A stretch of 64,000 nt of DNA from NCBI GenBank assembly GCA_003707115.1, contig PPNB01000016.1, positions 1 to 64,000 on the forward strand, in the 5' to 3' direction. Below, piece by piece: positions 26,260-62,391 of this stretch; the first letter of the stretch is position 1; every line of letters starts with the position of its first letter. The notes beneath the pieces were generated by a model. The model did no database searches. It was not told the origin of the DNA and saw only the letters and a program-made list of their open reading frames with translations. The stretch is from Tortispora ganteri. Taxonomy: Eukaryota. The translations under genes and the position numbers were made by a program.

Positions 26260-26918
26260 TGGTAGTTATGATACTCCGTTTACGATTTCCGCACATAGAT
26301 TCAAATCACGTAGATGCTAACTGTCAGCACATATTAGTCCGGTTAAGAAGAAAAGAAACTGATACGCTTGAAAAAGTAGCTGTTGAGGTTTGAAAACATA
26401 GAGAAGACATCTTGCGGTTGAGAAAGGGTCTGGGCCACTACAGAGACAGTATTTGAGCGATAACTCCTCAACACGTGACGTCAGACGCGTTTAAATCGCG
26501 TTGAGAGATCTAGTGGTAATTAAATATAGGAAATCAGTGAAATTCGATATATCTGAGCAGCGTAGCGACCTACAATGATTTTTCGGTACAAGCGATATTA
26601 CGTCCAAATAGTCAAATAAAGTTTTCATTAAAATCATAAATGGGGTTCTCCGAATATAGCTGTAAGATTGTTTATGTAATTAAGACAGAAGTTTAGCACT
26701 TAATGCATCTCTAATAATGTTTAGGGAAAGTACTATATTTGAGGGATTTTTTCAAATATTTCCGAAAGTGGTTTGTAAAGCACACCGGCCGAGGTACGGA
26801 TTTGAAAGGCACTAAGGGTTTATAAACGTTAATGTATATAAGGTTTGAGTGTTTTAGCAAAAGGTCTAGAACCTACGAAATTGGAAAGAACCATAATGTT
26901 TAGCCTGATCTAGAACCT

Positions 26919-27858
26919 AGGGGAATGGGTCCATATTGTCAGGCTGATCTGGGTTTCCTCAGCTAGCAACATTGACGCCTGCCGCGGCATATTTCCAGAT
27001 CGCAATGGGGATTACAATAACAACAAACTAGTGTAGGAACTGATCTATACAAGTGGCAATTGAAGTACGAGGATGCTCGCGTACAAATCGATGGAAGGAA
27101 GATCTCGGTAACATCTGATTTATGTATCAATACAATGATATCATTAATCTGAGAAAGTCATTGTCTGTTTACATAGGTCTGTTTACATAGGTCTTCAGCC
27201 CCCTTGTTACCGTCTTCAGTGGACTATCCCTGTTAACCTAGACCCTGCGATGCCGCTAGCTCGATGAAGAGAGCTGCCAAGAAGCAATAGTATATGCAAG
27301 GGGCTGTCGAAAAAGGTGGGCACTAGACGCGATCGATATTCCAGGGGTCCAGGCAAGTGTCAAAAATGTGTTTCGAAATGCCCGATTTGCTCATTCTGAA
27401 ACATCATTGCAGTCGATTTGATCGGATCAGTTGAATCTCGGTACTTACAATGAGCTCATTGTTTTCTCTGTACGAAGCACATTTAGCCGATAAATCCGAG
27501 CACAGTCAGCCACGGATTTCGTCACGAAATTTAGGCAAGCGGCTCTCTTATCGTAAGTAAATACAAGTATAAGCTAAATCGATCTTTTACCAAATCCGCT
27601 TTTAGAACGCTCTTAATTGGTCCGCTTCTTCTGTAATTAGAATAGCGTTATTCCACTCTTAGATAATATACGATTCGCTATTGGTTGACCCTTTGACATA
27701 ATGCTCTAATATTAGTCTATGTTCTAAAAAGGGATGGATAACTCTATTTACATTCGATTGATTTTAGGCGATTTTCTATTTTTTTCTTTATTTTCTTCAT
27801 TTTAAGTTTCAGTATAAATGAATCGTTAGTATCCTCATACACTATATAAAGCCCCCCT
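26919..27858 (+). promoter_or_regulatory. Stress/cell-wall promoter of the small cell-wall gene: five STREs, an Rlm1/MEF2 box and a TATA box
   Basis: AGGGG/CCCCT at 26919, 27200, 27299, 27343 and 27854; CTAATATTAG (CTAW4TAG) at 27706-27715; TATATAAA at 27843-27850. Confidence 0.55.
27163..27194. repeat. Perfect 14-bp tandem duplication GTCTGTTTACATAG x2.3, containing two forkhead-type TGTTTAC cores
   Basis: Read directly from the sequence. Confidence 0.9.
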
Positions 27859-27938
27859 GCTTTCTCTTCTTTTCTTCTTCTTTTTTCTTCAACTAACACT
27901 AAGTCTTTGATTTCGTTCGTTGTTAATAATTTATAATC

Positions 27939-28609
27939 ATGCAATTCAAGTCTGTCGTTGCTCTCACTCTTGCCTCCGCTGTTGCTGCTCAAAACGCAAC
28001 GTAAGTATACCTTCTATTTTAGTAGGGGCCATTTCGCCTGAATACAGGATTGGCCGCTATTGTTGTTCGTGATTCGCACAGTACACACCCGCCAGTAATC
28101 GAATTCTCTATTAGAGATCATTTCTTATAGCTATTTTGAAATTCTTTTGTTTTTTTGTTTTTTCATTTATTATGAGCCAAATATCCGATACTACCGGTTA
28201 TCCAGATTCATTGAACGATTCCTTTGGGATTTGCTCTTTTCTCAATAGAGTTTCGCTTCAAACCTAGTCTCTTCTTGGATATATCTATTCTATCAGATTT
28301 CTTATCGAATACATAGGAAATGCTCATAAAAAAACAAAAAGCGAAGAACAGTGATAAACGTAATCGAAAACTCAACTACATTAATTCGGGTTGTTCTGGC
28401 GAATCGCGATCATAACTTATAGTCAAGTTCTATGGAAACTAACTGATTTTAGCAACGGAACCAACTATACCTCTTCTTGCGATGTCTGCAACCATACCAG
28501 CTCTCATAGCGTCTACCCTACCCCCACCGCCACCTCTGGTGCTAACAAGGCTATGGGTGCAGGTGTCCTCGGTGCCGTTGTTGCTGGAGGCATTGCTCTT
28601 CTTCTCTAA
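27939..28609 (+). CDS. 72-aa secreted/GPI-type cell-wall protein, DDR2/HOR7/NCW1-like; exons 27939-28000 and 28453-28609
   Basis: GTAAGT donor at 28001, AACTAAC branch point at about 28437-28443, TAG acceptor ending at 28452. Spliced product is MQFKSVVALTLASAVAAQNATNGTNYTSSCDVCNHTSSHSVYPTPTATSGANKAMGAGVLGAVVAGGIALLL: signal peptide, four N-glycosylation sequons, hydrophobic tail, strong codon bias. Confidence 0.9.
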
Positions 28610-29136
28610 ATGTGTTTCTTTCTTGGTATTTACTATAATATATCATAGAGAAAAGGATTCAAAGTTATGCATTGAGAACTACGCTTTTTAGTTTGTTTTT
28701 ACCTTACTGTATATAAACTCCATTGTTGAGTTTCTGCAGACCTCTGTTACTAATTTTCGGTTTCCATTATATACATTTTTCGATAAATAGTCGCTGCATA
28801 GCTGTCTTGCATAACTTGTCTGTACTCTATAGTTGACTGATTCGTTCTTTTCTTTAACTATTTATTCTAATAGGTTTTCCTTTCATTTTTTCTGGTCACG
28901 TAATGCCGTACTTTCTATTAAATTAAAATATTAATATATTGCGATCTGCTATGGAGTTTTCCGGTGTTTCAATTTCCAACTGCGTGTTGTTATGACAACA
29001 CCCCGAACCTGTCCGTCCTTCCGCTACTCATGTCGACGCTGCATCCTCCTCTTCTTTCTCCCCCTTCGCCCCAGGCAGCTAACTTTGCATTAATTGCTCG
29101 GTTTGTTAACTGAACGCGTCTATATTCTTGTATAAA

Positions 29137-42668: not shown

Positions 42669-42739
42669 GCGTTGATGGTTTAGTGGTAAAATTCGTCGTT
42701 GCCATCGACGAGCCCCCGGTTCGATTCCGGGTCAACGCA
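42669..42739 (+). tRNA. tRNA-Gly(GCC), intronless
   Basis: Acceptor GCGTTGA/TCAACGC, D-arm TGGTTTAGTGGTAAAAT, anticodon arm CGTCG-TTGCCAT-CGACG, T-arm CCCGG-TTCGATT-CCGGG, followed by T tracts (Pol III terminator). Confidence 0.97.
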
Positions 42740-42793: not shown

Positions 42794-43855
42794 ATGGAAC
42801 TAAATCTAGCCAATTGCCTGCCCGAAAATTACAAGTTTTCTCTTTTTGAATCACGGACTAAGGAAGTTCCTAGGAAACTTACACTTGCTAAAGATGCCGC
42901 TAAAGGAACAGGGTCCTCGCGGCTCTATTTATTAGAACATAAAGATATATTAGTGTTTGGTCTTGAGATCGAAATATATAATGAGCCAGACTTGGTGACG
43001 ATCTTTATATCGAAAGCTGATACCACTGGATACTATTATGAGCAGGAACCTAAACCACCTACTTTGTCTATAAGAGGGATCGCGCAGAGGATTTTAGCCG
43101 AAATCATCAAAGAGTTTCCCGACCGCAGGTTGAGATTGTGTATATTTACGCGCCCAGAGAAACAGTATCTATTTGGCTTGTCTTCGAAATGTACATACAA
43201 GCATATACTCACTGGACTGCAGTTGCTGAAATGGTGGATTAATGTAGCAGAGAATGTTGCACAAGAAGTCTATGAGCATAGCGAGTTAAAGAAGTACGCG
43301 TTAAGTCCTGGTATGGACGATGCAGACTTAAAGCGGCTGCTCGATCATGTATCTGGGTGGCAGATTGGTACAGTATTTTGCCCAGAAGAAGACCAGAATA
43401 CTGTGAAAGCTGTTGATGTAATACCACAGTTTTCTGACGATCCAAAGACTAGATTCATCAACGCTATTGAAACAGATCACAGGAAAGACGAAGTAACAGT
43501 TAAAATGTTCTTAGAGGAAATCCAAGGACGACAAGAGTTTCGACTAGCTCAAACTGTTGGTATTATCGGTATTGTTGGAGTGACTAAACCAACTGCAAAT
43601 ACTACTAAATGGGATCATGAGCTGATTGATACACATTCCTATGATAGGCTACATGAACAGCTGCTTAATGGCGACTACAGTAATATAACGTCAGCAAAAA
43701 ATGCCACAGCCGATATTGTGAAGTCTATGACTTATAGAGCTGATATCATTGGATCTTTGAAGCAATTGGTAACTGAGAAAGAAAAAAATTCAGTTAAAAG
43801 GGTAAATACCCTATCTGCTGGATTAGTTAGAAAAAAGCCAAAAACAACTAGCTAA
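42794..43855 (+). CDS. RTT109: Histone H3K56 acetyltransferase Rtt109
   Basis: VFGLEIEIY, IFISKADTTGY, QYLF..S....KHILTG.QLLKWW, IPQFSDDPKTRFI, RQEFRL, VNTLSAGLVRKK. Confidence 0.92.
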   Translation: MELNLANCLPENYKFSLFESRTKEVPRKLTLAKDAAKGTGSSRLYLLEHKDILVFGLEIEIYNEPDLVTIFISKADTTGYYYEQEPKPPTLSIRGIAQRILAEIIKEFPDRRLRLCIFTRPEKQYLFGLSSKCTYKHILTGLQLLKWWINVAENVAQEVYEHSELKKYALSPGMDDADLKRLLDHVSGWQIGTVFCPEEDQNTVKAVDVIPQFSDDPKTRFINAIETDHRKDEVTVKMFLEEIQGRQEFRLAQTVGIIGIVGVTKPTANTTKWDHELIDTHSYDRLHEQLLNGDYSNITSAKNATADIVKSMTYRADIIGSLKQLVTEKEKNSVKRVNTLSAGLVRKKPKTTS

Positions 43856-43864
43856 AGCGAACAT

Positions 43865-44839
43865 CTAGACATTGCTAAATGCGAGAAGTATATCGTTGAT
43901 ACTCATTTCTCGTTTTGCATTGAGAAACAAGTTCCGTTGCAATTGTGTGCACCACTCTTTGCTTTGCCAATGGTTATGCCATTCAGAGTTGCAATGGTCT
44001 ACTAGCGTCGACAATACATTAATGGCTCTTTTTCGATCTCCATCTGTGCAGGAAATGATCTCACTAGTCTTTGAATGGTCGAGCTTGGAACCCACCCACT
44101 CAATTCTGTTATAGTATTGTTGCGGGACACATCGCAAGTATACGCGGAGAATGTCGAGGCCATGTGGGTCAGCATCTACGGCAATCTGAACTTTGACACG
44201 CGGCATTTTCTCAATCACATGCAACAACGTATACATCAAAGTTATTGTTGCTTTATCGGGATATCCTTTTCCACAGAGTATCACCCTGTTATTTTGGTGG
44301 TACCCGGATTCGACCAGAGAATGCATGATCGCCTCTTTCTCAACAATTAGGATCGAGTCTAGATCCGCCATCAATTTTGCTTCAACTGGCTTTCCTGGTA
44401 AGACAGTGATCTCTGAGCAGTCCACTTCGCATTCAGGGTTTACGCATTTTAAACGAAGGGGGCCTATCACAAGTCCTTTGCTTCCAGGTACGATACCGGT
44501 CAAACTCGAATCGATCTTCAGTGCCTCACCGAGTTTCTTAAGCGAGAGATCTACTGCATATTGTGACCGGAAAAGCTCGACATTTTGATAGTAAACATTT
44601 CGTCTAGTTACTGTTACGCCGTTTTCGAGACATTCAATTGCCGTGTTTAGTAGAAATAACAGCATTGTGAATTGACGACATTCCGACTCGGTCTTCCCAG
44701 GGAACGAATAGTCTCCTATTTTAAGTTCCCGACTATTCTTTAATGAGGAAATAAGGTACGCCTTTTGTCCGAGAAGTCGTTTCAGAATGCTGCGTTTGCT
44801 TTGACCTCGCGCAGGAGTGCTACGAAGTTGACTTGACAT
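43865..44839 (-). CDS. SPO11: Meiotic double-strand-break transesterase Spo11
   Basis: Catalytic-Tyr region TRRNVYYQ..LF.SQ..VD, SKGLVIG, Toprim motifs ILIVEKEA, GKGYPD and DADPHGLDI, C-terminal KREM. ATG at 44839. Confidence 0.92.
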   Translation of the reverse strand: MSSQLRSTPARGQSKRSILKRLLGQKAYLISSLKNSRELKIGDYSFPGKTESECRQFTMLLFLLNTAIECLENGVTVTRRNVYYQNVELFRSQYAVDLSLKKLGEALKIDSSLTGIVPGSKGLVIGPLRLKCVNPECEVDCSEITVLPGKPVEAKLMADLDSILIVEKEAIMHSLVESGYHQNNRVILCGKGYPDKATITLMYTLLHVIEKMPRVKVQIAVDADPHGLDILRVYLRCVPQQYYNRIEWVGSKLDHSKTSEIISCTDGDRKRAINVLSTLVDHCNSEWHNHWQSKEWCTQLQRNLFLNAKREMSINDILLAFSNV

Positions 44840-45424
44840 GATTGTGAACGACACGTCAATTTTTCCGCGTTCACTGTAGTAACCAGTTCTCCTGAATCTC
44901 TATGTACCTCAACAATTTGAATGACAATTTTTTTAAAAGCAATATACATTTTTGTTAAACGCAAAAATCTAACTCGAATATATTTATTGTACGTAATGGC
45001 TTCTTTATCGTCTATTCCGTCAGCTGAAAGTGCATTTTAAGGTTAACCTATCGCAAAGCGAAAGGCCGTTGTAGGAACAATGACCTTTGTTATTTCCAGC
45101 ATTATATTAAGGTTACCGGTGTAACTGTAAATAAATATACCTTATAGGATTATTTAAGACGATAAATAGTATTATGTATAATGGTAAGACATTACATAAC
45201 ATAGCTTTAATAAACAGAAAAGAGAAAACAAAAAATGAAAATAAAAATAGTTGCAAGCACAAGTTCGTCTAGACAATGACAGACAGGGAACCTCGCCAAA
45301 TTTGTTGGTGCAGCAACTCGTTATTATACATGTATGAAAGGAATTATAGAGCCCCAGTAAAAATATTAGCGCCAAAAAACTACAGGAGATATCTGAAAGT
45401 TTTGCAAGAATGAAAGAGGAAGTT

Positions 45425-47284
45425 TCAGTAAGAGTGTCTGGGGTTAGGTTGTTTGACTTCCCTGTCAACTATGATTCCAGTTCGATTAAAGTCCGGTATA
45501 GGATCTTCTATAGCAATAACAGGAAATCCAGTAGAAAAGAACCCATTTATCAAAGTGTTCCTAGATATTGAAAAGCGCGCAAACAACAGCTGTTGAATGA
45601 GCTTTTCATACTCCGAAGCTTCAGCGTTCGAAATGTACTTGAGCTTGAGCCAGAGCCCCAACTCAATTTGATTCGCCATTATAGCAAAAGCTGCGACTTC
45701 TAAAGGTTGTGTAATATGTGTAATCTGAGTAGGACAATGAACAGTTGAAAAACCATTGTGCGCTAGCAATTCTACCAGCTCTAACGAATGGTACTCAGAA
45801 AAGTCATTAAGTATAATGACAGGACGTTCAGAAGCCACAGTGCGTCGTCTTTCAACCACCGGAATAAGTATATTTTTAACATATTCAAGGAGAAGGTCGG
45901 CTCGATCGAACTGCTCTATAGACCCTCGAAATGCATATACACCACTATACTTTATTGTCATCTCTTTCAAGGCAGGTAGCTGAGATTTGTCTGAAACTGT
46001 GATCCCAATCATACCAGGAAGTAGCGTTCCATCTGCACTAGCACATTCAAATATAGTAAATGCATTCAGTATAGGATAAACGTTAGAGTAGGATTTGGGA
46101 ATCACAGAGGGCCTGTAAGTGTCTAGGTAGTATGGTAACGAGAACTCAGAGAGGCTGAATATCAACTCCGGGGATGTTTCTATGTCTTGCAGAACATTCC
46201 TAACTTGGTCTTCATGCTTTCGCATATGTGTCTTTGTACCTGCTCGTTTTCGTCTTCTGTCGCCGGGGGGAAACAGTTCTAGTCCAAGAGTCGAGGAGTT
46301 ACGGCTGATAAAGGACTTGAACCAATAGCGCGATATATCTTCTTTTGCCTTCTGAGGAGACATCATCCTAGAGTTGCTTTCTGAAGCTTCTTTGGCCACC
46401 TGGTTAGAATTGGTGATATTTTCAGGTTGAGCCTTAGGGTTCATCAAAAGCGTGCCCGTATCAGCTTGGACTTCTTTAATAGAGTCGGTATTATTTTGAT
46501 CAACAAGAGCAGGTATAGATAAAGACTTGGAAGCAGAGGTCGCCGTGCTATTTATTTCAGTCGAACCATTGCCTGATTCTGTGTTGAGGTTTGACGTTTC
46601 AATTGCGGATGAGGTATTGGCCGGATCAGGTGTATCTGCAGGTTTATTGTCGGATGATAAACTGAATGTGGATTGGTTTTTTGTAGAGCTTGACGTATCA
46701 GTTTGACAAGTCTGAGCTATCATTACGCTATGGTCACTGGTAGCTGACGATTCAGTCTTAGAAACTTGGGAATCTTGTGATTCTCTTTGATCTCGGGCCT
46801 CATGAAGAGACCTTGCTAGCTCTTTGACTTCCATGATCTTCAGGGGGTACCCGTCATAGAACCCACGCTCAATTGCTTCTGCAACTTGACATTCCTCATC
46901 ATACGATAAATATCTGCCACGACGTGACGACTTCAATTTAGCTAAATCGAAATCATTGTCAGAGGTAGTAGTTTTAGCTTGTTCGGTCAAATCAGCAGGA
47001 ATATCAATCGAGTCTTCGCTGAGCGTACCGCCGCGAGATTTGAGTCGTTTTATTACCATTCTGTAGCTCAACTGGAATTCTTTAGCGAGAAGTTTTCTGC
47101 CGCTCCTATTCTTTTTACCGGGTGAGTTTTCGTATTTAATTATCTCATCAACACAAAGGTCATACAAGCGATTGATGATTTCTCTTCGCATTCTGTATGT
47201 ACCTGTCTGCCGTAAAGCATCGTGCATACTATCTATCTGCTTGCGTACATCTGCAGGAATAGGAGGCATTTCAGGGCGATCCAT
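45425..47284 (-). CDS. Pogo/Fot1 (Tc5/CENP-B type) transposase-derived protein with degenerate DDD triad, probably domesticated
   Basis: psq-like HTH (SGRKLLAKEFQLSYRMVIKRLK); CENP-B HTH (LSYDEECQVAEAI...GYPLKIMEVKELARSL ... ISRYWFKSFISRN); DDE_1-like blocks TIFECASADGTLLP, RPVIILND...H and HCPTQITHITQPLEV. Uninterrupted 619-codon ORF; no TIRs seen. Confidence 0.8.
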   Translation of the reverse strand: MDRPEMPPIPADVRKQIDSMHDALRQTGTYRMRREIINRLYDLCVDEIIKYENSPGKKNRSGRKLLAKEFQLSYRMVIKRLKSRGGTLSEDSIDIPADLTEQAKTTTSDNDFDLAKLKSSRRGRYLSYDEECQVAEAIERGFYDGYPLKIMEVKELARSLHEARDQRESQDSQVSKTESSATSDHSVMIAQTCQTDTSSSTKNQSTFSLSSDNKPADTPDPANTSSAIETSNLNTESGNGSTEINSTATSASKSLSIPALVDQNNTDSIKEVQADTGTLLMNPKAQPENITNSNQVAKEASESNSRMMSPQKAKEDISRYWFKSFISRNSSTLGLELFPPGDRRRKRAGTKTHMRKHEDQVRNVLQDIETSPELIFSLSEFSLPYYLDTYRPSVIPKSYSNVYPILNAFTIFECASADGTLLPGMIGITVSDKSQLPALKEMTIKYSGVYAFRGSIEQFDRADLLLEYVKNILIPVVERRRTVASERPVIILNDFSEYHSLELVELLAHNGFSTVHCPTQITHITQPLEVAAFAIMANQIELGLWLKLKYISNAEASEYEKLIQQLLFARFSISRNTLINGFFSTGFPVIAIEDPIPDFNRTGIIVDREVKQPNPRHSY

Positions 47285-48353
47285 AGTTTAATTGTGGTAA
47301 AGAATAAACAAGTAGTGTTGGTATTGTTGCGGTAACTAGATTTGTTGCATGGTAGTTAGGGGGGAGGCATGCCAAAAGGAAGAGATTTTCCAACCAGTGT
47401 CCGTTGCTAAGGAGCTAATGTTTTTTAACGGGATATTATGTTAAATCAAGACATTCTCCAGTTATCGGTTGTCCAGATTCTTACCGTCTGCGATTCAATA
47501 TGCTAAAATAATACTACCTTAATAAATAGTTAAAAGTAACATATTTGTGTATTTGATTGATGAGGGCAATATATTTTACAAAGGATAGAACTTACGCTCA
47601 TCCCGTATCTGAAAGTTTAATATTTTTGACAGTAGGCAACCCAAGTTCAGCCAGCCGCACTTAAAAGCTTTTCTAAGAGCACACGCATTCTCTAGCTATA
47701 CATTTTCTGCCTATGGCTGACCAATAAAACATTCTTTAGTTATTTGCTTTTCACTATAAACATGAAATTGAATGGTTTAATTTACCTAAGAACTATTGTC
47801 GTTTCATTGACGAACATGTAGAGCTCCGATAGCGTGAGATATGATCGCGATATGTGACATGTTGTGACATGTATGATAGATTCAGATAATCACAAAAGGA
47901 AACATTTATATGTCTATTTGGTCATATATTGGTATGAAACTACCAGTATAATGCATGAGATTAATTAAATGGCGATTTCGCACCAAGAAGGAGCAATATT
48001 GACTCGTGAAGTTACTGATGGTGATTGGACGTGAACAACCTAAAACAATATAGGGTTTGAGGCTAGAATATCTCGTAACTTGAGGGAACATGTCTTATAT
48101 GATCATATAAAACAAAGGGCAAATATTTTTAGTATTATAATATCGATGGTATAATGAATGTGTAAAGCTGTAACCTATGCAAGGATGGGCCGGCTTGTTG
48201 TTTTGTCATGTATTGAACCGAAATAGTCACTGATCGTCGATCGTAATAACCATACAAACTCCAATAAGAGATTGATTATTAGATGCAATTTATTTATGAT
48301 GATTCAATGTTGTAAAATAAACCAAGTCTCATTGAGGCTAATTGAATCATACT

Positions 48354-48378
48354 TATATATATATATATATATATATAT
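48354..48378. repeat. (TA)12 microsatellite
   Basis: Read directly from the sequence. Confidence 0.9.
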
Positions 48379-49174
48379 TTATACAATACAGATCATACAT
48401 GTGCTTTGACATGTGAAACTGTAGGCTGATGTGAGAAAGCAAAATAAAGGCAAAATCATTTTAAAGACAATATATTACAATATTAAAGGTAAGAAGCCGT
48501 TAATCTGATAACCATAAGCCGCCATGTCCTTGTATGTTATAATTGTGAACTTGCCTCTGCGAGATGTAAGATATAGGTATATAGGTTGAAATACTATACG
48601 GCTACTTTTATAAAGTCGTTCAAACCATTCAAATAAGGCGTACTGTAGAAATATTAATATTGTCTATGCGATCGAGTAGAATTGCAATATCGCAAATGAA
48701 ATAGATGTTCGACATTGGCTAGAACATTTAGTCGACTAGTACGACCGTAGATACGATGTCGCCCTCGATTAGAAAAGATTCAAACATTATTAGTTTCGAA
48801 TTTAACACATCTATATCTTTCAATTGTTGCTGCAGCAACCGTTTTTGTACTATTTTATTTAGATTGAAGATCTAGGACCCTGCCGATACTTCGGACACAT
48901 AAGGTTAGGCTACTAAATCTTCTTTTAGCTGCAAATGTACAACACGTCTTTAGTTAGCACTGTTATTCGGCTAACTATTTTTCGTTTAATATTAAGGCCA
49001 CGGGAATTTTTTGATATTCTATCGTACGTTTCATAGAACTGGTCTGTTGCGATAGGGCTATTATTTTTTCTTTTCTATTTTTTTTTTATTTTTCAGATAG
49101 TTATTTGGCAATAACTCTATTTTGTTCTGATATTCATCGATCTGATTCGTTTATCTAGCTGAAATTGTTGAACC

Positions 49175-51223
49175 ATGAAACCATTGCACTCGATATTCCG
49201 AACGATGTCGCCGATTCTGGTCCTCCTCGCTTTATTCATAATATTTGAATCCGTTATGCTACTAAAATCATCAGAAGTCTCTGCGTGGATAGACGACTCG
49301 GCTTCTAGAGTCCGCCCAGCAGCGACCACCACAACTGCACGTAGCAAACCGCATTTCGGCCATGATCAGAAAGAAGGTGACCGCCCACAGGCAACAAATT
49401 ATTTAGAACCAGAAGATCCGCTGAAAGGACCGTTACCTAAGGATAAGAAAATCCTCCGAAAACTTTACGACCTAGCTATTGAAAAGGAACTCTTAACAGT
49501 AGGAGAAATAGGTCAGTTTGACGCGCAAGACCCCATACAGCAGCTTGTGGTCAGAGGAATGCTAATTTATCACAAACTTTCTCGTGTCGAACAGCCTACA
49601 TTGAATGAACTGACAACATGGTACATTAAACAGCACGGCCGAGTGCCCCCGCCTAATTTCGATAAGTGGTACGAATACGCTAAGGAAAGGAATGTAGTTG
49701 ACTACAGGTCGTTTGAACAAATATACAATGACCTAAAGCCTTTCTGGGGTTTATCGCCAAGTACAATAAGAGCTTCTATTCAAAACCTGCAAAATGCTCC
49801 TGAATTTGAGCTTATTGAAATCAGAGACGGCAAGGCAGTTTGGCCGGGCGATCATGATATATCGTACTTAAAACGCGCTAACATTTTTCGACAAGCTGTC
49901 GACACATACGGTGGTAATGTCCCTGATCTGGATATACTGCTAAATAGTATGGATGAGCCAAAAATTCTTTGTCCCTATAGGGATATTGCATTGTACAGAA
50001 AGCTGGAAGAACAAACGCGATATGTTCACCCTGCACCGAAGAACGAGTTCACAACAACTATTAAACCGGCTACAGATCCTCTATACGGTCCTAATATCCC
50101 CTTTAAATGGATCGAACATAATCGTCGACCAGCCTATGACTTACTACATGGCTCATGTCCAGCAGATTCGCTCATTGCGTGCCCGGAAACCACGGAAGAG
50201 ATACGAAAGATGTCTGAGAAGCTGTATTTGACAGAGAGGGGAAAATTCATATTTAACATGAGCGCTGCTCGGGACTCTTGCACTATTGGACCTGTTGCTC
50301 GCTATAACCACGGTTTCTTTGCAGCTGCTATTTCTAATAGAGTACTGCCAGATCTGGCCCCGGTATTCTCTGAGAGCAAACTGAACGTGTACAGCGATAT
50401 TTTAAGTGCTCCGCATATGCATTTTATCGATGACTCTAATTTCCTCTTTGACCCTGCCACTGAGCAAAGCTTTGAAAGCAAGAGCGATGTCGCAGTATGG
50501 AGAGGGTATACTTCGGAAGGTGATGCTCGGCCAGATACCTGGAACTATCTGCAAAGGCATAAGTTAGTTAATCTGTTCAATGCTTCAAAGGTAGAAGAAA
50601 CCGGGATGGACAAGTACCACTTCATGTGCGACAAGGAAGAGAGAAGAAACAATGGCGTTGAGAATGAGCCTGGCATGTGTGTTGTCGACCCTACCAGCTA
50701 TCTGGAGGAGTATGGCGATATGGCATTTGTTGGTCAGTTTGGTTGCGATGGCGAAGAAATGTGTGATCTTGAACGGCAACACTACGCTATAGTCGATAGA
50801 TTGCCATTTAATGAGATAATGCAACACAAGTATCTCTTTGACGTTGATGGCGTCACGTTCTCCGGAAGATTTACGGCATTTTTGAACTCAAATTCGTTGC
50901 CGTTCAAGTCTTCAGTTTTTAATGTTTGGTACCAGAACAGACTGGTTCCGTGGGCTCATTACATACCGATAGACGTCACTATGGATGAGGCGTTTGCCGC
51001 CTATGTATATTTTAATGGGTTTAAGGAACACGCACCTTCAAGAGTTGCTCTTGCTGCAAAACTGGGCAAGATAGGCCAGGAATGGACGCGACGAGTGTTG
51101 CGTAAGGAAGACATGGAGGTATACAATTACTTACTGTTGCTGGAGTACGGCCGGGTACTGGACGATAACCGAGATCAAATTGGATACCTCCCACCGGGAT
51201 TTGATGTTTCTCAAGTGGTGTAA
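49175..51223 (+). CDS. GT90 glycosyltransferase, CAP10/Cxt1-like (copy 1)
   Basis: Type II N-terminal TM; HGRVPPPNFDKWY, IYNDLKPFWG, PDLDILLNSMDEP, WRGYTSEG, KYLFDVDGVTFSGRF, LVPWAHYIP, LRKEDMEVY.YLLLLEYGRVLDDNR. Confidence 0.93.
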   Translation: MKPLHSIFRTMSPILVLLALFIIFESVMLLKSSEVSAWIDDSASRVRPAATTTTARSKPHFGHDQKEGDRPQATNYLEPEDPLKGPLPKDKKILRKLYDLAIEKELLTVGEIGQFDAQDPIQQLVVRGMLIYHKLSRVEQPTLNELTTWYIKQHGRVPPPNFDKWYEYAKERNVVDYRSFEQIYNDLKPFWGLSPSTIRASIQNLQNAPEFELIEIRDGKAVWPGDHDISYLKRANIFRQAVDTYGGNVPDLDILLNSMDEPKILCPYRDIALYRKLEEQTRYVHPAPKNEFTTTIKPATDPLYGPNIPFKWIEHNRRPAYDLLHGSCPADSLIACPETTEEIRKMSEKLYLTERGKFIFNMSAARDSCTIGPVARYNHGFFAAAISNRVLPDLAPVFSESKLNVYSDILSAPHMHFIDDSNFLFDPATEQSFESKSDVAVWRGYTSEGDARPDTWNYLQRHKLVNLFNASKVEETGMDKYHFMCDKEERRNNGVENEPGMCVVDPTSYLEEYGDMAFVGQFGCDGEEMCDLERQHYAIVDRLPFNEIMQHKYLFDVDGVTFSGRFTAFLNSNSLPFKSSVFNVWYQNRLVPWAHYIPIDVTMDEAFAAYVYFNGFKEHAPSRVALAAKLGKIGQEWTRRVLRKEDMEVYNYLLLLEYGRVLDDNRDQIGYLPPGFDVSQVV

Positions 51224-55571: not shown

Positions 55572-55657
55572 TTCGAGTCAAGAATTAAATCGTATAAATG
55601 GAAAGTAGAGCGAAGAGCGAGCGAGATACCCGGTTATATTTATATAGGTAGTTCTAT

Positions 55658-57233
55658 GTGGAGAAAGCACTCAGTTGGTAAAGTACCGAATGGTTTTAAC
55701 AAACTAATTAAGTTCTCCCCAGAATTTTTTTCTCTATTTTCAAGTATATGGTAAACTTTCTGACTCTGCAAACTCTAATAGTGGAATGAATCGACCAATT
55801 AAACTAGTTTTCTGATATATACCCCGCAATCCACTTTAGGCATCAAGATGTCAAAAGGGACTTGGAAAAATCCCACAAAGTTGTTCGACCAGCACGGAAA
55901 AAGCAGTGTTGATAGTGTCGAAAAAGCGGAGCTAGATGTGCATTAGATACGTTCGATTTGACATGAGTTACTTTCTCGGGACGTGTGATAACGATTTGAC
56001 ACCATTGTTCTACGCACAAAGTCCAATGTTTTGGTGATATCACAAGACAATCAGAGTTCCGCGTTTGTTCCTTGTAACGCTTTATTGGCGCAGGAGTGAC
56101 AGGGCTAGTTGTATGGGCCCGCAGGTACGCCCACTTAAGAATTGGTTTAGTCAGAATAGCTTACCGGTAATCATCGACTTTAAGCTTTCTGCTGAAACAT
56201 ACCCGCAATCGAAATTGTGGGGATTCGAAAACCGACATTCAGGCTACCCCTCAGCTATACACGCTGGCTTTATCTCCTATTACGCAATATGATTATTTTA
56301 TTGGCTTGCAGCGAGCTCTCCTGCCAGAAATGAAGCGTACGTTTGGTGCGATATGACATCCCCGAGGCATGATCTGGAAGTACCCTATGAATCAGAGTTA
56401 AGGTTACGGAGTGGGAAATTCCGATACCGCAAAAAAAATAAAGGTCATAAGAAGCATACCGCTTCGTAGTCATATATGTTTGATAACCGGTGGTCTTGTA
56501 CTTGCATGAGGTGTCAGAGGACGTCGAGACTTCTTAAACCAACATCGATATCGATTTGTTTTGCGTATCGACTAATGCGATATATTTCGATATCAACTTG
56601 GCTAGATGGTTTCTGACAGCGATTTCCATATAAAGTAAGTGGGGAGGGGGCTGCTAAGAGCGAGAATTAACGTCAACTGGAGACTCTACAGTTTAAACTG
56701 AATCTTAAATTGGCCAACTAAAGTTAGAGTGATCGGGCACTGGCATTGCCCACTTGCCACTCCGATATAGGGATTTGGAATGACAGGCACGGTGAGATCT
56801 GTTTGATCGGCTAGTTGAATAAGCTGCTATTAGTGTAATGCGGGGAACAATGTAATGCGGATCAAGCAGCTGGAAAGGTATGCCGAAAGATGTATGACGG
56901 TCTTGATGACCTTCCGCCGGCCCCCCCACTTTTACGGAAACGATTGTATTTCTTTCCGAGGGCTTTTCGATCGAAGAGCGCTGTTTTATGTAGCAGCTAT
57001 TATCGCAGATGTAATCTCCTTGCGCTTTCAGCTTAACTGGTGGGTGAGCGCTTCATATTAGGTGGTAATCTTGATTAGAACTGACTCTGGAGTCCCTGGA
57101 ATATGTCGTTCTACTTATACTTGCAGAAGTGGCCGATGCTGCGCTCAGGGAATATGACTATTAAGGAATATTTGCTATAAATCATTGTGTAAAGTTCGGT
57201 TACTAGCGATCTAACCGGGTACTGCACCTCCAC
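55658..57233. promoter_or_regulatory. Dense Mig1/CreA-type SYGGRG boxes upstream of the MFS transporter
   Basis: Matches on either strand at 55658, 55717, 55822, 55926, 56217, 56639, 56677, 56840, 56924, 57087 and 57228. Confidence 0.5.
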
Positions 57234-58473
57234 TGAGCACCATCTCGGGCACGTTACCGCAAAAGCAGTTTAGTTTGATCGATTCAATAAGACTGAAGAC
57301 AACACTGTAACCGGTAAAAATGTTGACAATAGCGCTGTGCTATGGTATATGTGTAGTCATTGATGCTAATCTAGCTGTAACCGTTTTAATAGTAGACCAA
57401 TGAACACATGTTAAGTGTACGGATGGAGAGTAGATATAATACAGACATTATGGGATACACACAGATGTACTTGTATTAGCGGGTTGATATGCTGATACAG
57501 ATTCTACTGCATGCAAATAGACACGTAATGATGAGGATGCAATGCATGTTTGTTATTATCGTGATCACAAGTATACAAAACTATTGATCGACTATCTCGT
57601 AACTGTATTCGACACAACCTTAATTCGCCGTAAAGCTTGAAGTACCATACAGGAAGAATGTTTCGATTGCATGATCTGTATGGTCTGTATGGTGCGCTAA
57701 GTATGTATGGTCTATGTGTTGGCCAATCGGGCCGCCATGGAATGACACAGAGTGTATTGTACATGACAGTAAATGCCGTTACTTCTATTTAGTGAAAATG
57801 AAGCATCCGTAGTACATAGTTATCACCCTTTATCCGGTCAATTAAACGCACAAGTGCAAAAGTAATTGTACAAGGGTGATCGGTTAAGGTGAAAGCTAAT
57901 TGTAATATAACTTTAATTGTGCTAGGATTTCACTCATTGCGACAATCTGTCGAAAAGTAAGTTTGAAGGTCTATTTTGGGGAGATGCATTCAGGGGGTCT
58001 ATTTTTGGTACATATACATTCTATTTGTAAAGTATGATCGTGCTATTTACACTTTATCACTGGTGTGAATAGCACTGCTTCCAGCACTATTCAGTAAATT
58101 TTTAAGATGAAGCAAAGTGGCCCATATCGAATGCAGACATGCAACCTCTTCAAAACCGCAAGAATGAAACCATTAGAATCGATATGTTAAGGTTCGAATA
58201 TTTAGTTTATTGTTACCTAGGCTCTGTTTAGTGCGGGCCGCTAACCAATGATGGCGAGCTTATCATATTTCGAAGTATATCTACTACTATGCGGATTTTA
58301 ACCCTGAATTGTTACAACTAAATACATAAAAGCACTCCTTGTTAAAAGACCACGTTTATTGTGATCAGTATATGAATACCGCTCGATATTTAAACTGTCA
58401 CATAGAAAGAAAAAGTAAAATCTTATAAAATTATATTGCAGCAACACAGAATCCAACAGATATTTACTTGCTA

Positions 58474-60288
58474 ATGATTCCGACGCGTGTTCGCAAACTT
58501 TTCACTCTTTTCGCTGTGGCCTTGCTAGTTGGCATCTTATGGTTACATTTTGGATACCCTACGAGCTTCAAATACCCTACGGAAGCATTTACTGTGTCAA
58601 AGGCAAAGCGACCTGGATTTTCGAATTTAGAAAAACTAGACTTATCGCAACTAGACGCAGTCAGATCAGTCGATGATCCGATCGCAAATCTTTTTCTTGA
58701 CGCGCTACTCAACAAGAGACCACTGTATAGAAGGTACACTCTCGAAGAATATGTTGACAAATACATTAAAGATCACGGTCGTGCGCCACCTCCTGGTTTT
58801 GATAAATGGTATGAATTCAGTATCAGCAGAGGCTGCGTAGATCTCGATCATTTCGATGCTATTTACGAGGACCTCGAGCCATTTTGGAACGTCAAACCTG
58901 CAGAGATACGAGCTGCATCAAAAGCACTGGAAAGTTTGCTGCATTTAGAAACAATAAAAATAACTAATGGTGTTTCAAGTTCTGTTTCTCCTCACAGTCG
59001 CGTGGTTGACGTCAGAAGAATGATGGCCGCATTCACGGAATATCTACCCGATATGGAACTAGTAGTTAACCTCAATGATGAGCCAAGGGTGTTTGTTCCC
59101 TATCAAGATATACAAGAAATTCAAAGAGCAAATGCAGCTTCTGAGAAATCAGGTTATCGCCCTCCTCTTTACAGCAACTACACTCACAGTATTGTCGCAT
59201 CAGAGTCTGAAGACACCATGGATATTCCTATGGAAATTCTCACTGGCAAAGAACTGTTCAGTCATGCTTCTGATTGTTGTGCGCCAGAATCCCCACTACG
59301 ACTATGGCAGAGTGGTCACTACAATGTCTCTGATATAGAATTTATGTACAAATCACTTGGGCTTGTCACGAACTATTCCCTGACCTCTGACCTGTGCACC
59401 GTGGCACCGCTGATTAACGACAAGCACGGTTTTTTAGTTGCACCTGTTGGTTTGCGTAAAATCCAAAAGCTAGTCCCTGTTTTCTCTATGACGAAAACAA
59501 GTATCAACTACGACATCCGCATACCAGGTGACAAATACCACACCGATGCAGGCTGGTATGGTTATGTTGGCACAAATGACCCTGAATGGGAAGAAAAGAA
59601 AGACATAGCAATATGGAGAGGTGTGCCTTCAGGTGGTGAACAAAGAATTGACAGCTACATGAAAGTGCAACGAAATAGGCTTATTCATTTGTTAAACGCC
59701 TCCTTCACCGATGAGCCCTTGGCTACTATATTTTGTGATAATCAAGATCCATATGCAACTACTAAATTTAAAGATTGTCAAGTTAATTTGAGAGAATACT
59801 TGAAGACTCATGCCGATGCTGGTTTTAGTGCCCTGGAGTGCTATGATTGCGAACATCTCGCCGACATTTATGACGTGGTGCCCAAAATATCTAACGCAGA
59901 CCAATTCCAATACAAATACGTCATAGATGTGGATGGTCATTCGTTTTCGGCGAGATTTAAGGCATTTCTTCAAAGCAAAAGCCTTCCATTAAAAGCGTCT
60001 ATTTTTAGAGAGTGGCACGACTCTCGCTTAATACCTTGGCTGCATTTTATACCTATGGATAACGCATTAGACGACACTCTCAAACTACTGACATACTTTA
60101 CAGGAGTTGAAGGAGTAATAGAACCTCACCAGGATGTTGCTAAACATATATCACTAGAAGGCAGAATGCATGCAGATTTGGTACTACGGAATGAAGACGT
60201 TGAAAGCTATATGTTCTTACTGTTTCTGGAGTATGCACGGCTGCTTGATGATAACAGAGACCAGATCGGGTTCACAATTGATAAATAA
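58474..60288 (+). CDS. GT90 glycosyltransferase, CAP10/Cxt1-like (copy 2)
   Basis: N-terminal TM; HGRAPPPGFDKWY, IYEDLEPFW, LPDMELVVNLNDEPRV, WRGVPSGG, KYVIDVDGHSFSARF, EWHDSRLIPWLHF, LEYARLLDDNR. ATG at 58474. Confidence 0.93.
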   Translation: MIPTRVRKLFTLFAVALLVGILWLHFGYPTSFKYPTEAFTVSKAKRPGFSNLEKLDLSQLDAVRSVDDPIANLFLDALLNKRPLYRRYTLEEYVDKYIKDHGRAPPPGFDKWYEFSISRGCVDLDHFDAIYEDLEPFWNVKPAEIRAASKALESLLHLETIKITNGVSSSVSPHSRVVDVRRMMAAFTEYLPDMELVVNLNDEPRVFVPYQDIQEIQRANAASEKSGYRPPLYSNYTHSIVASESEDTMDIPMEILTGKELFSHASDCCAPESPLRLWQSGHYNVSDIEFMYKSLGLVTNYSLTSDLCTVAPLINDKHGFLVAPVGLRKIQKLVPVFSMTKTSINYDIRIPGDKYHTDAGWYGYVGTNDPEWEEKKDIAIWRGVPSGGEQRIDSYMKVQRNRLIHLLNASFTDEPLATIFCDNQDPYATTKFKDCQVNLREYLKTHADAGFSALECYDCEHLADIYDVVPKISNADQFQYKYVIDVDGHSFSARFKAFLQSKSLPLKASIFREWHDSRLIPWLHFIPMDNALDDTLKLLTYFTGVEGVIEPHQDVAKHISLEGRMHADLVLRNEDVESYMFLLFLEYARLLDDNRDQIGFTIDK

Positions 60289-60405: not shown

Positions 60406-62391
60406 CTATGGCCTGAATCCTTCAGGATAAAATCCAAGAGAGTCGCGTTCATCGTCGAGAAGTCTCGCGTATTCGAGCAAAAGCAAAAATTTGTATGCAA
60501 GCATATCATCCTTTCGCATCACTTTGGCACTCCACTCTTTACCTGCATTTGCAATTCTAGCTGCAAGTTTTAGTCTTGGAGAGGTATAGTTATCAAATCC
60601 AGTGAAGTATACAAATGCTGAAAATGCTTCGTCAAAAGTAATATCAAGAGGAATGAAAGTTCCCCACGGTATTAAACGGGAATCATGCCATTCATGGAAA
60701 ATCGTAGACTTAAACGGCAACGAAGAGCACTGCAAAAACGCTAAAAATCGGCCAGAAAAGGTTGTACCATCAACATCAAATAAGTATTTGTGTCGCAGTA
60801 CGTCTTTGAAAGACATTTTCTCTTTTGGCGAGTAAGACAACTGTTCTATATCGCAATTCTCCGCAGAGCACAGATACATGCTCGTAAATGCCATGTCGCT
60901 GTATTTTTCTAAAAACGATGAAGGATCTTTATAACACATCCCATCGACACCAGGAACTCCAAGAGACTGAGCGACTGCAGAAGAACACATAAAGTTGTAT
61001 TTGGATTCACCATTGAAGGAAATTTTCGAGGAGTTGAACAGGTTTACCAACCTGTGACGTTGAAAATAGTCCCAGACATCGGGTCGATTAGTACCTTCAG
61101 TAGTAAGCCCTCTCCAAGGAGCCTTGTCTTCTTTCATCATAAAGTCCATATCCGCAGATTCGTCGTAGTCAAAGGTTTCGTCACCTGAAAAATGCATGTT
61201 AGGAGGGTAAAGAATATCATTATTAACGTTGAGCTTACTTTCAGTAAAAATAGGCACAAGGTCTCGCGTTATAATGTTATGTTCAGGTGCAGCAAGGTAT
61301 CCATGGTTGTATCGTGCATAAGGTCCAATATTGCATACGTCCATGGAGTAGTTGAAGTCGCGCACAAAACCGCCTTTTGGCGTCAGGTACATTTTTGCAG
61401 CCTTTTGTCGTATTTCAGTTACCGGGCTAGGATCAAATACAAGAGAATCAGGTGGACATGCTGAGTCTATGAGATCATAGCCGGGGTGATACGAATAATC
61501 AATCCAATGGAAAGGTATATTAGCGCGGTATTTGTCGTCAGGCGTATCATCATTCGTTGACGTGAAGGTGTGTTTCGGATTTTGAACCACTTTGCGAGTG
61601 GACTCTTCTTTAGCGTTGTACCTATTTATATCAACAAACGAAGCAATTACACGCGGTTCGTCTAGTATATTGACGGCAATGTCCATGTCGGGGAGGTACT
61701 CGACGAATGAGTCTAAAGTACGCTGAAACATGTTCATTCTCCAACCAGGATCCTCACCTTCAGTAGTAACAGCGGTTGCCGATCCATCACGGACTTTTAT
61801 AATTCCCATTCCAGGTTCGCCTTGAAGTCGCCTTACAGCTGCCCTTAGTGTTTCAGGGGGTACGCCCCAAAATGGGCGCAGATCGTCATAGATGCGGTCA
61901 AAATCTGTCAGGTCCCAAACGCTGCAGTTTATGGCATATTGATACCATATATCAAAATGCGGTGGAGGCGCTCGGTGATGCTTTTCAATATATATTTGCG
62001 TCAGTTTGGCTAGACTAGGGCGATTAGGAGTTAACCGATTATGGTAATCCAGAAGACCGCGAACGATCAAGGTTTGAACAGGATCGTCAGCAGAAAAGGC
62101 ACCGATCTCTTCTTGCTGGACAATACCCGTTTTAAGCGCTAGATCGTACAGATTACGTGACTCTTTATCGTCAAATCCGTCCGATGGCGCATAAAATAGC
62201 TCTGTTTTTGAGTTGACTGCACGATTACATCTGTCAGAGTAGAACCAGCATGTGTCGAAGAAGTTAAACAGTTTCAGAGTGATAAACACCAAAATTACCA
62301 ACACTGGCAGTGATCGCAGCTTGCGATTTGTGCAAATCATCTTAAACAAATTTTTATTGTCCGTCAATTGCCATGATCGAAGCCAGTTCAT
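60406..62391 (-). CDS. GT90 glycosyltransferase, CAP10/Cxt1-like (copy 3)
   Basis: N-terminal TM; HHRAPPPHFDIWY, IYDDLRPFWG, LPDMDIAVNILDEPRV, WRGLTTEG, KYLFDVDGTTFSGRF, EWHDSRLIPW, LEYARLLDDER. Alternative start at 62340. Confidence 0.93.
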   Translation of the reverse strand: MNWLRSWQLTDNKNLFKMICTNRKLRSLPVLVILVFITLKLFNFFDTCWFYSDRCNRAVNSKTELFYAPSDGFDDKESRNLYDLALKTGIVQQEEIGAFSADDPVQTLIVRGLLDYHNRLTPNRPSLAKLTQIYIEKHHRAPPPHFDIWYQYAINCSVWDLTDFDRIYDDLRPFWGVPPETLRAAVRRLQGEPGMGIIKVRDGSATAVTTEGEDPGWRMNMFQRTLDSFVEYLPDMDIAVNILDEPRVIASFVDINRYNAKEESTRKVVQNPKHTFTSTNDDTPDDKYRANIPFHWIDYSYHPGYDLIDSACPPDSLVFDPSPVTEIRQKAAKMYLTPKGGFVRDFNYSMDVCNIGPYARYNHGYLAAPEHNIITRDLVPIFTESKLNVNNDILYPPNMHFSGDETFDYDESADMDFMMKEDKAPWRGLTTEGTNRPDVWDYFQRHRLVNLFNSSKISFNGESKYNFMCSSAVAQSLGVPGVDGMCYKDPSSFLEKYSDMAFTSMYLCSAENCDIEQLSYSPKEKMSFKDVLRHKYLFDVDGTTFSGRFLAFLQCSSLPFKSTIFHEWHDSRLIPWGTFIPLDITFDEAFSAFVYFTGFDNYTSPRLKLAARIANAGKEWSAKVMRKDDMLAYKFLLLLEYARLLDDERDSLGFYPEGFRP

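Follow-up and report, generated by a model that had tools for sequence, protein, structure and literature searches.

Among the genes of a 64,000-nucleotide stretch of DNA from the budding yeast Tortispora ganteri (positions 1 to 64,000 of contig PPNB01000016.1, assembly GCA_003707115.1, referred to below as the window) is an open reading frame (ORF) of 619 codons plus a stop, located on the minus strand at 45425-47284, whose product we consider, at a probability of roughly 0.75, to be a domesticated DNA-binding host protein that derives from a pogo-type transposase and is no longer catalytic. This is suggested by the comparison of sequences and by structural modelling, and a DNA-binding role in the host appears the most likely one because the residues required for cutting have been lost and the gene has been kept intact between two species. 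A preliminary description of the window, made from its letters, had put forward an intact, dead transposase derivative that is held by purifying selection and works as a host gene, and both parts of that proposal have held up: a 619-residue counterpart exists in Tortispora caseinolytica, with folded domains that are 94-96% identical as against 55% for the linker, the catalytic triad is replaced in both species, terminal inverted repeats (TIRs) and a second copy were not found in the searches given below, and codon usage is like that of the host. The accompanying claim that the protein is new has fared less well, as the counterpart had already been deposited. This protein, CANCADRAFT_32703 of T. 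caseinolytica NRRL Y-17796, entered as hypothetical and carrying a UniRef name that starts 'DDE-1 doma...', is the sole close relative found across two very large collections of proteins.

45425-47284, minus strand: whole ORF, predicted to encode a pogo-derived, non-catalytic protein; the frame is open, the T. caseinolytica counterpart of 619 residues is 85% identical and aligns without a gap, and there are no insertions or deletions (indels) relative to contigs of another strain.

The frame has no internal stop, and the motifs that had been quoted for it are all present, namely IFSLSEF at residues 375-381, TIFECASADG at 410-419, IILNDFSEYH at 490-499 and QPLEV at 526-530. The C-terminal half of the product is, judged by homology and by its modelled structure, a very diverged pogo-type (DDE_1) transposase domain. 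When 1.84 billion representative proteins were searched with a HMMER profile built from both Tortispora sequences, 16 came out at E<=0.001. One of them is the T. caseinolytica protein; the other 15 are distant (E 2.2e-7 to 8.9e-4) and align over approximately residues 283-587, and DDE_1 is present in every one of these 15, with scores of 44-85 bits where the cut-off is 22. A hidden Markov model (HMM) made from 16 distant relatives, with the query left out, gave the ORF 134.8 bits over residues 289-588 and reproduced each conserved block, although this score is inflated because the relatives had been picked for matching the query. Atlas language-model features of residues 306-619 found matches exclusively in DDE_1-bearing sets (30/30, the best at 0.96). 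The conserved blocks that the ORF has in common with its pogo relatives are W..F..R, PELI.N.DE, C.sADG..LP and QPLD. The relationship to DDE_1, weak as it appears in Pfam, is thus established by the 15 DDE_1-bearing distant matches, by the 134.8-bit HMM score and by the match of the fold to transposases that is described next. Word-index homology searches with two alignments returned 2 and 16 proteins, none of which pointed to a named pogo family, and of the 593 pattern stretches that matched when metagenomes were scanned for close relatives, none was confirmed.

When AlphaFold was given the two Tortispora sequences alone the mean predicted local distance difference test score (pLDDT) was 34.9, and it was with an alignment of 27 sequences that confident domains were obtained, at residues 11-88, 122-180 and 312-590, with disorder at 89-121, 184-311 and 591-619. 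The last of the confident segments contains the catalytic-type domain, which is followed by the disordered end of the protein.

45515-46261, minus strand: RNase H-like domain of transposase catalytic type (diverged DDE_1), residues 342-590, predicted from homology, HMM and fold; pLDDT mostly 80-96.

45428-45514, minus strand: C-terminal tail, residues 591-619, predicted to be disordered (pLDDT 35-41); 82.8% identical between the species.

The modelled core has an RNase H-like fold of the IS630/Tc1/mariner/pogo type. Foldseek matched the model to the catalytic domains of Sleeping Beauty (5cr4, E 1.9e-4), Metnase/SETMAR and Mos1, and VIA-align placed Metnase (3k9j, Z 14.4), Mos1 (4mdb, Z 14.2) and Sleeping Beauty (Z 12.5) above the retroviral integrases (Z 9-11). 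Residues approximately 342-590 find their best structural counterparts in these three, at a sequence identity of just 8-14%. SETMAR is itself a domesticated mariner transposase, while Mos1 and Sleeping Beauty are active enzymes in which the catalytic carboxylates are present; in the ORF they are replaced. A search of the PDB with the single protein, using phmmer, retrieved NarL, which was set aside as a chance match (E 1.2).

The catalytic columns were read from the same 27-sequence alignment, composed of the two Tortispora proteins and 25 relatives. All three positions, which the preliminary description had suspected of being altered, are replaced: both Tortispora proteins have S379, N493 and E529 where 25 of 25 relatives have D, D and D.

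46148-46150, minus strand: codon S379, column of the first catalytic Asp (N.DE in the family, S.SE here); D in 25/25 relatives, S in both Tortispora proteins.

45806-45808, minus strand: codon N493, column of the second catalytic Asp, with D494 next to it; D in 25/25 relatives, the placement following from a gap-free alignment and the 35-residue spacing.

45698-45700, minus strand: codon E529, column of the third catalytic Asp (QPLD to QPLE); D in 25/25 relatives, E in both Tortispora proteins.

The distance from the second to the third catalytic position is 35 residues in the ORF and in 24 of the 25 relatives, and a DD35D rule is described for Passer and for Fot and Fot-like elements by Gao et al. 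(PMC7386202). The earlier alignment by hand had equated D494 with the second Asp, and on this point it needs correcting, since gap-free MAFFT and HMM alignments and the 35-residue spacing place N493 in that column; the alternative, with D494 in the role of the second catalytic residue, was rejected, since it requires a gap and breaks the spacing. Because the same replacements are found in both species, inactivation would predate the split between them. We regard it as a strong inference from the alignment that the protein has ceased to be catalytic. An enzyme that remains active through an unconventional site, for example E380, D494 and E529, has next to no chance of being the right explanation. 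In its favour are the acidic residues adjoining two of the lost aspartates and the conservative D-to-E change at the third position. E380 is, however, invariant in 27 of 27 aligned sequences, those that look active included, and is therefore a feature of the family and not a substitute for the first Asp, whose loss abolishes activity in DDE enzymes generally.

Signs of mobility are equally wanting, as the preliminary description had stated for TIRs. No TIRs with a TA or TAA target duplication stood out above chance in the flanks of the ORF. The best inverted pair that bounds it, 45088-45113 with 47516-47541, is complementary at 19 of 26 positions (73%) and scores 12, as against a mean best score of 13.3 for shuffled flanks; it is flanked by TT and TA, without a matching TA duplication, and was rejected as being at chance level. 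The top-scoring inverted pair overall joins an A-rich tract (45206-45251) to a T-rich one (49063-49090) and was dismissed as low-complexity sequence; the first of these tracts is also matched by contigs of unrelated organisms (runs X5 and X6), which match nothing else on the locus. The suggested check on copy number gave the same answer, as tblastn within the window found only the ORF itself, and the whole contig sets of two public DNA runs from one organism (X1 and X2), searched for a second copy at a likeness of at least 80%, gave one contig per run and otherwise matches of 24-27 nucleotides; T. caseinolytica likewise has one annotated relative of the ORF. The ORF shares homology, fold and catalytic spacing with pogo transposons and lacks their triad, their TIRs and their multiple copies, and for this reason we do not regard it as a transposon. 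The lack of TIRs and of a second copy counts against an active transposase in the same way.

It is the pattern of conservation that makes an idle remnant hard to maintain. Identity between the T. ganteri and T. caseinolytica proteins is distributed as follows.

Residues 1-165, N-terminal modules: 95.8% identity.

Residues 166-305, inserted linker: 55.0% identity.

Residues 306-590, core: 93.7% identity.

Residues 591-619, tail: 82.8% identity.

From these values the rate of amino-acid change in the domains is 0.07-0.11 times that in the linker, when the linker is used as a proxy for weak constraint, and the folded domains are, on this protein comparison, under purifying selection. Variation within the species points in the same direction, in small numbers. 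Contigs of another strain from X1 and X2 carry the locus with the same flanks at about 99.6% identity, and over the 4.2 kb from 44840 to 49058 they differ at 15 (X1) or 14 (X2) substitution sites and by 3 single-base indels, all of which lie outside the ORF. This degree of identity over 4.2 kb indicates that the window and the two runs represent different strains or haplotypes. Within the ORF there are 7 substitutions and no indels, 4 of the changes being synonymous and 3 non-synonymous, and all of the latter are in the linker (codons 187, 241 and 289). The codon frequencies of the ORF correlate with those of the other 25 ORFs of the window at 0.855, the highest value among the 26, and its codon usage is host-like.

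The Tortispora pair, in a tree of the core built by maximum likelihood, sits on a stem of 2.63 changes per site, and its tips measure 0.033 and 0.017 as against a median tip of 1.01, a pattern that, as far as the core sequences tell, is that of change over a long time, after which the sequence was tightly conserved. A long stem with tiny tips is what would be expected of a fixed host gene and not of an active transposase. The pair groups with the relatives from the first search, outside the animal-type clade. It is against these data that the possibility of an immobile relic without host function, its frame open by chance or after recent inactivation, has to be judged. That the protein is known from only two species and gives a very weak Pfam signal would suit such a relic, which we nevertheless find very improbable. 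The linker has diverged to 55% identity and the folded parts remain at 94-96%, without a single indel between two proteins of 619 residues, the triad replacements common to both species place inactivation before their split, and the codon usage is fully that of the host. Furthermore, in a simulation of a neutral frame that allowed for substitutions only, at 0.05 substitutions per site per lineage an open frame survived in 3.6% of cases, and at 0.1 it did so in 0.13%, and survival of a neutral frame is harder still because it is needed in both lineages and without indels too.

The N-terminal region is where a domesticated protein of this kind would be expected to make contact with DNA, and the features proposed for it are listed here in the order of the protein, the putative DNA-binding modules being of the helix-turn-helix (HTH) class.

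47021-47254, minus strand: first helical module, putatively DNA-binding, residues 11-88, with the helices of a psq-like HTH at 61-69 and 74-83; AlphaFold pLDDT mostly 75-92, 96.6% identity over residues 1-88.

46745-46921, minus strand: first two helices of a putative second HTH of Tc5/CENP-B type, from GR.LS..EE, residues 122-180, placed by alignment; pLDDT 79-93, 97.7% identity over residues 122-165.

46352-46735, minus strand: insertion within the second HTH, rich in S, T and N, net acidic and predicted to be disordered, residues 184-311; pLDDT <50, 55% identity between the species.

46262-46351, minus strand: third helix (SRYWFKSFISRN) and strand that would complete the second HTH, residues 312-341; in all relatives it is the W..F..R helix that aligns here.

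46244-46258, minus strand: RRRKR basic cluster, residues 343-347, a possible nuclear localisation signal; identical in both species.

In the alignment a psq-like HTH falls at about residues 55-85, and a Tc5/CENP-B-type HTH starts at the GR.LS..EE motif (123-139). Atlas features of the N-terminal 183 residues matched clusters of the HTH_psq and CENP-B N-terminal type at 0.92 with 177 shared features, a score level that is also reached by 4-10% of shuffled proteins. The 'CENP-B-like protein 2' cluster and a cluster with HTH_ABP1_N were matched at 0.89, which is under the 0.9 level from which the tool treats a match as more than a lead. The family profile gave a weak match to CENP-B's DNA-binding domain (1hlv, E 0.028), and a model trimmed of its disordered parts (residues ~127-400) matched winged-helix DNA-binding proteins at Z 6-7 over ~60-70 residues, with a root-mean-square deviation of 1.9-2.9 A, which may reflect a common helical arrangement only. 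Of the pogo/Fot1 domain order that had been proposed, the DDE_1 core is thus upheld by homology and fold; the evidence for the pair of N-terminal HTH modules is less firm. DNA binding by the protein is accordingly something that we infer from alignment and model.

The most unusual part of the protein is the insertion. The recognition helix SRYWFKSFISRN (residues ~318-329) lies 179 residues past the first helix, as against a gap of 27-42 in the 20 relatives with a complete second HTH, and it follows that approximately 140-150 residues are inserted inside the second HTH of the Tortispora proteins. Serine and threonine make up 34% of the insertion, and it is net acidic, with 18 acidic and 8 basic residues over 166-305. 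Islands within it are identical in both species (PADTP, ATSASK and LSIPALVD), and it has a TP site at 218, with an SPQK site at 309-312. By this comparison the disordered insertion is lineage-specific to Tortispora.

These observations can be assembled into a mechanism. A transposase of the pogo superfamily (DDE_1, DD35D-type) would have been domesticated as a host gene in the Tortispora lineage of budding yeasts, and its product would have lost the ability to cut DNA. The protein would enter the nucleus by way of the RRRKR cluster, and its bipartite HTH would bind specific DNA sequences, much as pogo transposases bind the ends of their own elements. The inactive and conserved RNase H-like domain may act as a structural or interaction platform, and a regulatory segment, or one for activation or recruitment, may be provided by the S/T-rich acidic insertion, in which conserved islands and S/T-P sites occur. 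As to the cellular role, we tentatively favour, at somewhat less than even odds, sequence-specific regulation of transcription after the manner of Pdc2/Rag3. Pdc2p of Saccharomyces cerevisiae and Rag3p of Kluyveromyces lactis are likewise host proteins of budding yeasts with N-terminal HTH modules and a degenerate pogo core (PMC2134285). The ORF product differs from them in having the ~140-residue disordered insertion inside its second HTH. It is also shorter, at 619 residues compared with ~925 for S. cerevisiae Pdc2.

Resemblance of this kind raises the question of whether the ORF is simply the Tortispora orthologue of Pdc2/Rag3, the regulator of thiamine and pyruvate-decarboxylase genes, diverged past easy recognition and with no independent domestication behind it. 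Tortispora is a budding yeast, Pdc2p and Rag3p are described in PMC2134285 as yeast transcription factors related to pogo whose transposase motifs are degenerate, and the very long stem (2.63) means that much sequence signal has been lost, by which such an orthology could be hidden. We still consider it improbable. No Pdc2-like or Pdc2-sized protein is among the 16 found at E<=0.001; apart from the T. caseinolytica protein these are of 206-617 residues, match at E>=2.2e-7, retain an intact D/D/D and look like ordinary DDE_1 proteins, which is why we see nothing of the Pdc2 family among them. The separate origin from Pdc2 had been argued beforehand on other grounds, from the TIFECASADG..LP block as a Fot1-like mark, and that argument has to be abandoned: the block is found in 25 of 25 relatives, animal-type ones included, with G419 invariant in all 27 rows, and being common to all of the relatives examined it is uninformative on Fot1 versus Pdc2. 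These relatives are mixed in type, and one of the distant relatives found is a starfish protein. With Fot, Fot-like and other pogo transposons the ORF has in common the domain order, the conserved blocks and the 35-residue spacing, and it differs from them in having S/N/E in place of the D/D/D triad, in the lack of TIRs and target duplications, in being single-copy and conserved between species, and in its very long branch. Assignment to Fot as opposed to another pogo family is not established, since the 35-residue spacing is shared by 24 of 25 relatives of mixed type.

A role in chromatin like that of CENP-B or Abp1 ranks second to that of a transcription factor, and we hold it to be possible but doubtful. 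Here the origin would be the same, and the protein would bind repeated, centromeric or replication-related DNA so as to organise chromatin, silence retroelements or protect forks, with no part in gene regulation. Independent pogo domestications have produced mammalian CENP-B and the Abp1/Cbh1/Cbh2 proteins of the fission yeast S. pombe, whose chromatin roles are described in PMC4231638 and PMC10799480. Their architecture, a bipartite HTH with an inactive DDE_1-type domain, is that proposed for the ORF product, and altered D,D35E residues in CENP-B and Abp1 are mentioned in PMC2134285. The weak match of the family profile to the CENP-B DNA-binding domain and the 0.89 match of the N-terminus to 'CENP-B-like protein 2' fit as well, and the Rtt109-type and Spo11-type neighbours of the ORF act on chromatin and DNA, adjacency being weak evidence. 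Against such a role, the ORF lacks the Pfam CENP-B_N and HTH_ABP1_N signatures, the top Atlas clusters are of the HTH_psq type, and the C-terminal dimerisation domain of CENP-B is not evident, the tail at 591-619 being modelled as disordered. Long acidic S/T-rich disordered segments are, moreover, more typical of activators. The genomic surroundings offer no repeats to bind, neither repeats nor retroelements having been seen in the window, and the T. caseinolytica genome is given as small, at 9.2 Mb, in its published description (PMC5499181). A related proposal, which we judge unlikely, is of a domestication independent of the Pdc2, fission-yeast and mammalian CENP-B events, giving rise, in an early-branching lineage of budding yeasts, to a dead pogo CENP-B-like protein that would mark centromeric, replication or retroelement DNA and whose DNA binding would be phospho-switched via the insertion that splits the second HTH, for instance at SPQK, the conserved site that immediately precedes the recognition helix.

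Several points weigh against the reading of the ORF product as a domesticated, non-catalytic DNA-binding protein, and they are collected here. The Pfam DDE_1 model (PF03184), which had been suggested as a check, does give a signal on the ORF, at residues 462-548, that is sub-threshold (16.7 bits against a gathering cut-off of 22, E 0.0057), and the T. caseinolytica protein matches no Pfam family at E<=0.01. The same check was negative for the other half of the protein, as none of the Pfam HTH families, CENP-B_N (PF04218) and HTH_ABP1_N (PF18107) included, matches the ORF at E<=1, and hhalign found a weak match for residues 118-159 (E 0.014, probability 3%); with the level that shuffled proteins reach in Atlas, the statistical support for the HTH modules, and so for DNA binding, is weak. 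The selection by similarity of the relatives behind the HMM score belongs here too. Conservation was assessed at the level of protein against one other species, with the linker standing in for neutral sequence as a proxy only. Contigs can hide copies, diverged ones included. Loss of catalysis is a deduction and not a measurement, because D494 and E380 adjoin the lost aspartates.

The domestication of pogo transposases is a well-known and recurrent event to which the Tortispora case would add another example, and its practical weight is limited by the obscurity of the organism and the familiarity of the class. Less ordinary are the complete replacement of the triad with retention of the whole fold and the interruption of an HTH by a long disordered insertion, which would be an unusual structural solution. 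Budding yeasts are poor in DNA transposons, and the adoptions of transposases in this group that are named in the part of the literature available are Pdc2/Rag3, Kat1 and alpha3. If our reading is correct, the ORF would encode a second pogo-derived host protein of budding yeasts, so far seen only in Tortispora, and would provide a natural example of what outlasts catalysis, namely the two HTH modules together with the entire RNase H-like fold, which appear strongly constrained. No treatment of the gene was found in the literature, its locus tag included, and the supplements of a screen for fungal host-transposon fusions (PMC10799480) may list the T. caseinolytica gene.

The setting of the ORF is that of gene-dense, yeast-like DNA with a G+C content of ~37-48%. 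On one side lie a Spo11-type gene (43865-44839, minus strand) and, beyond it, a gene for an Rtt109-type histone acetyltransferase (42794-43855), and on the other side is a gene for a GT90 glycosyltransferase (49175-51223). The remaining genes of the window are ordinary housekeeping ones, for example those for V-ATPase subunit H, 14-3-3, eIF2-gamma and clathrin heavy chain, and no transposon-like gene besides the ORF is among the proteins encoded there. The spacer upstream of the ORF (47285-49174) is, at 1.9 kb, long for such a gene-dense window and is AT-rich (G+C ~0.37-0.40); its largest ORF starting with ATG has at most 61 codons, it contains a (TA)n tract at 48349-48386, and it has no Rfam matches. 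The idea of an RNA gene or other element in this spacer was dropped, as the Rfam matches of the whole window consist of a tRNA-Gly only. Between this gene, a tRNA-Gly(GCC) at 42669-42739 on the plus strand, and the Rtt109-type gene downstream of it are 54 bp.

Three further observations concern the window at large. GT90-family glycosyltransferase paralogues occur three times within 13 kb (49175-51223, 58474-60288 and 60406-62391), two of them being adjacent and convergent. Two stretches of ~2.9 kb each, 26260-29136 and 55572-58473, have no ORF of 150 codons or more, with short stop-to-stop frames, and may contain split genes, since the published relative T. caseinolytica is described as intron-rich (PMC5499181). 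Finally, the 882-residue Zn2Cys6 protein encoded at 8380-11028 on the minus strand matches the model for Cep3, subunit B of the centromere complex CBF3, at 31.8 bits against a cut-off of 22.5, together with Fungal_trans, and is probably an ordinary zinc-cluster factor.

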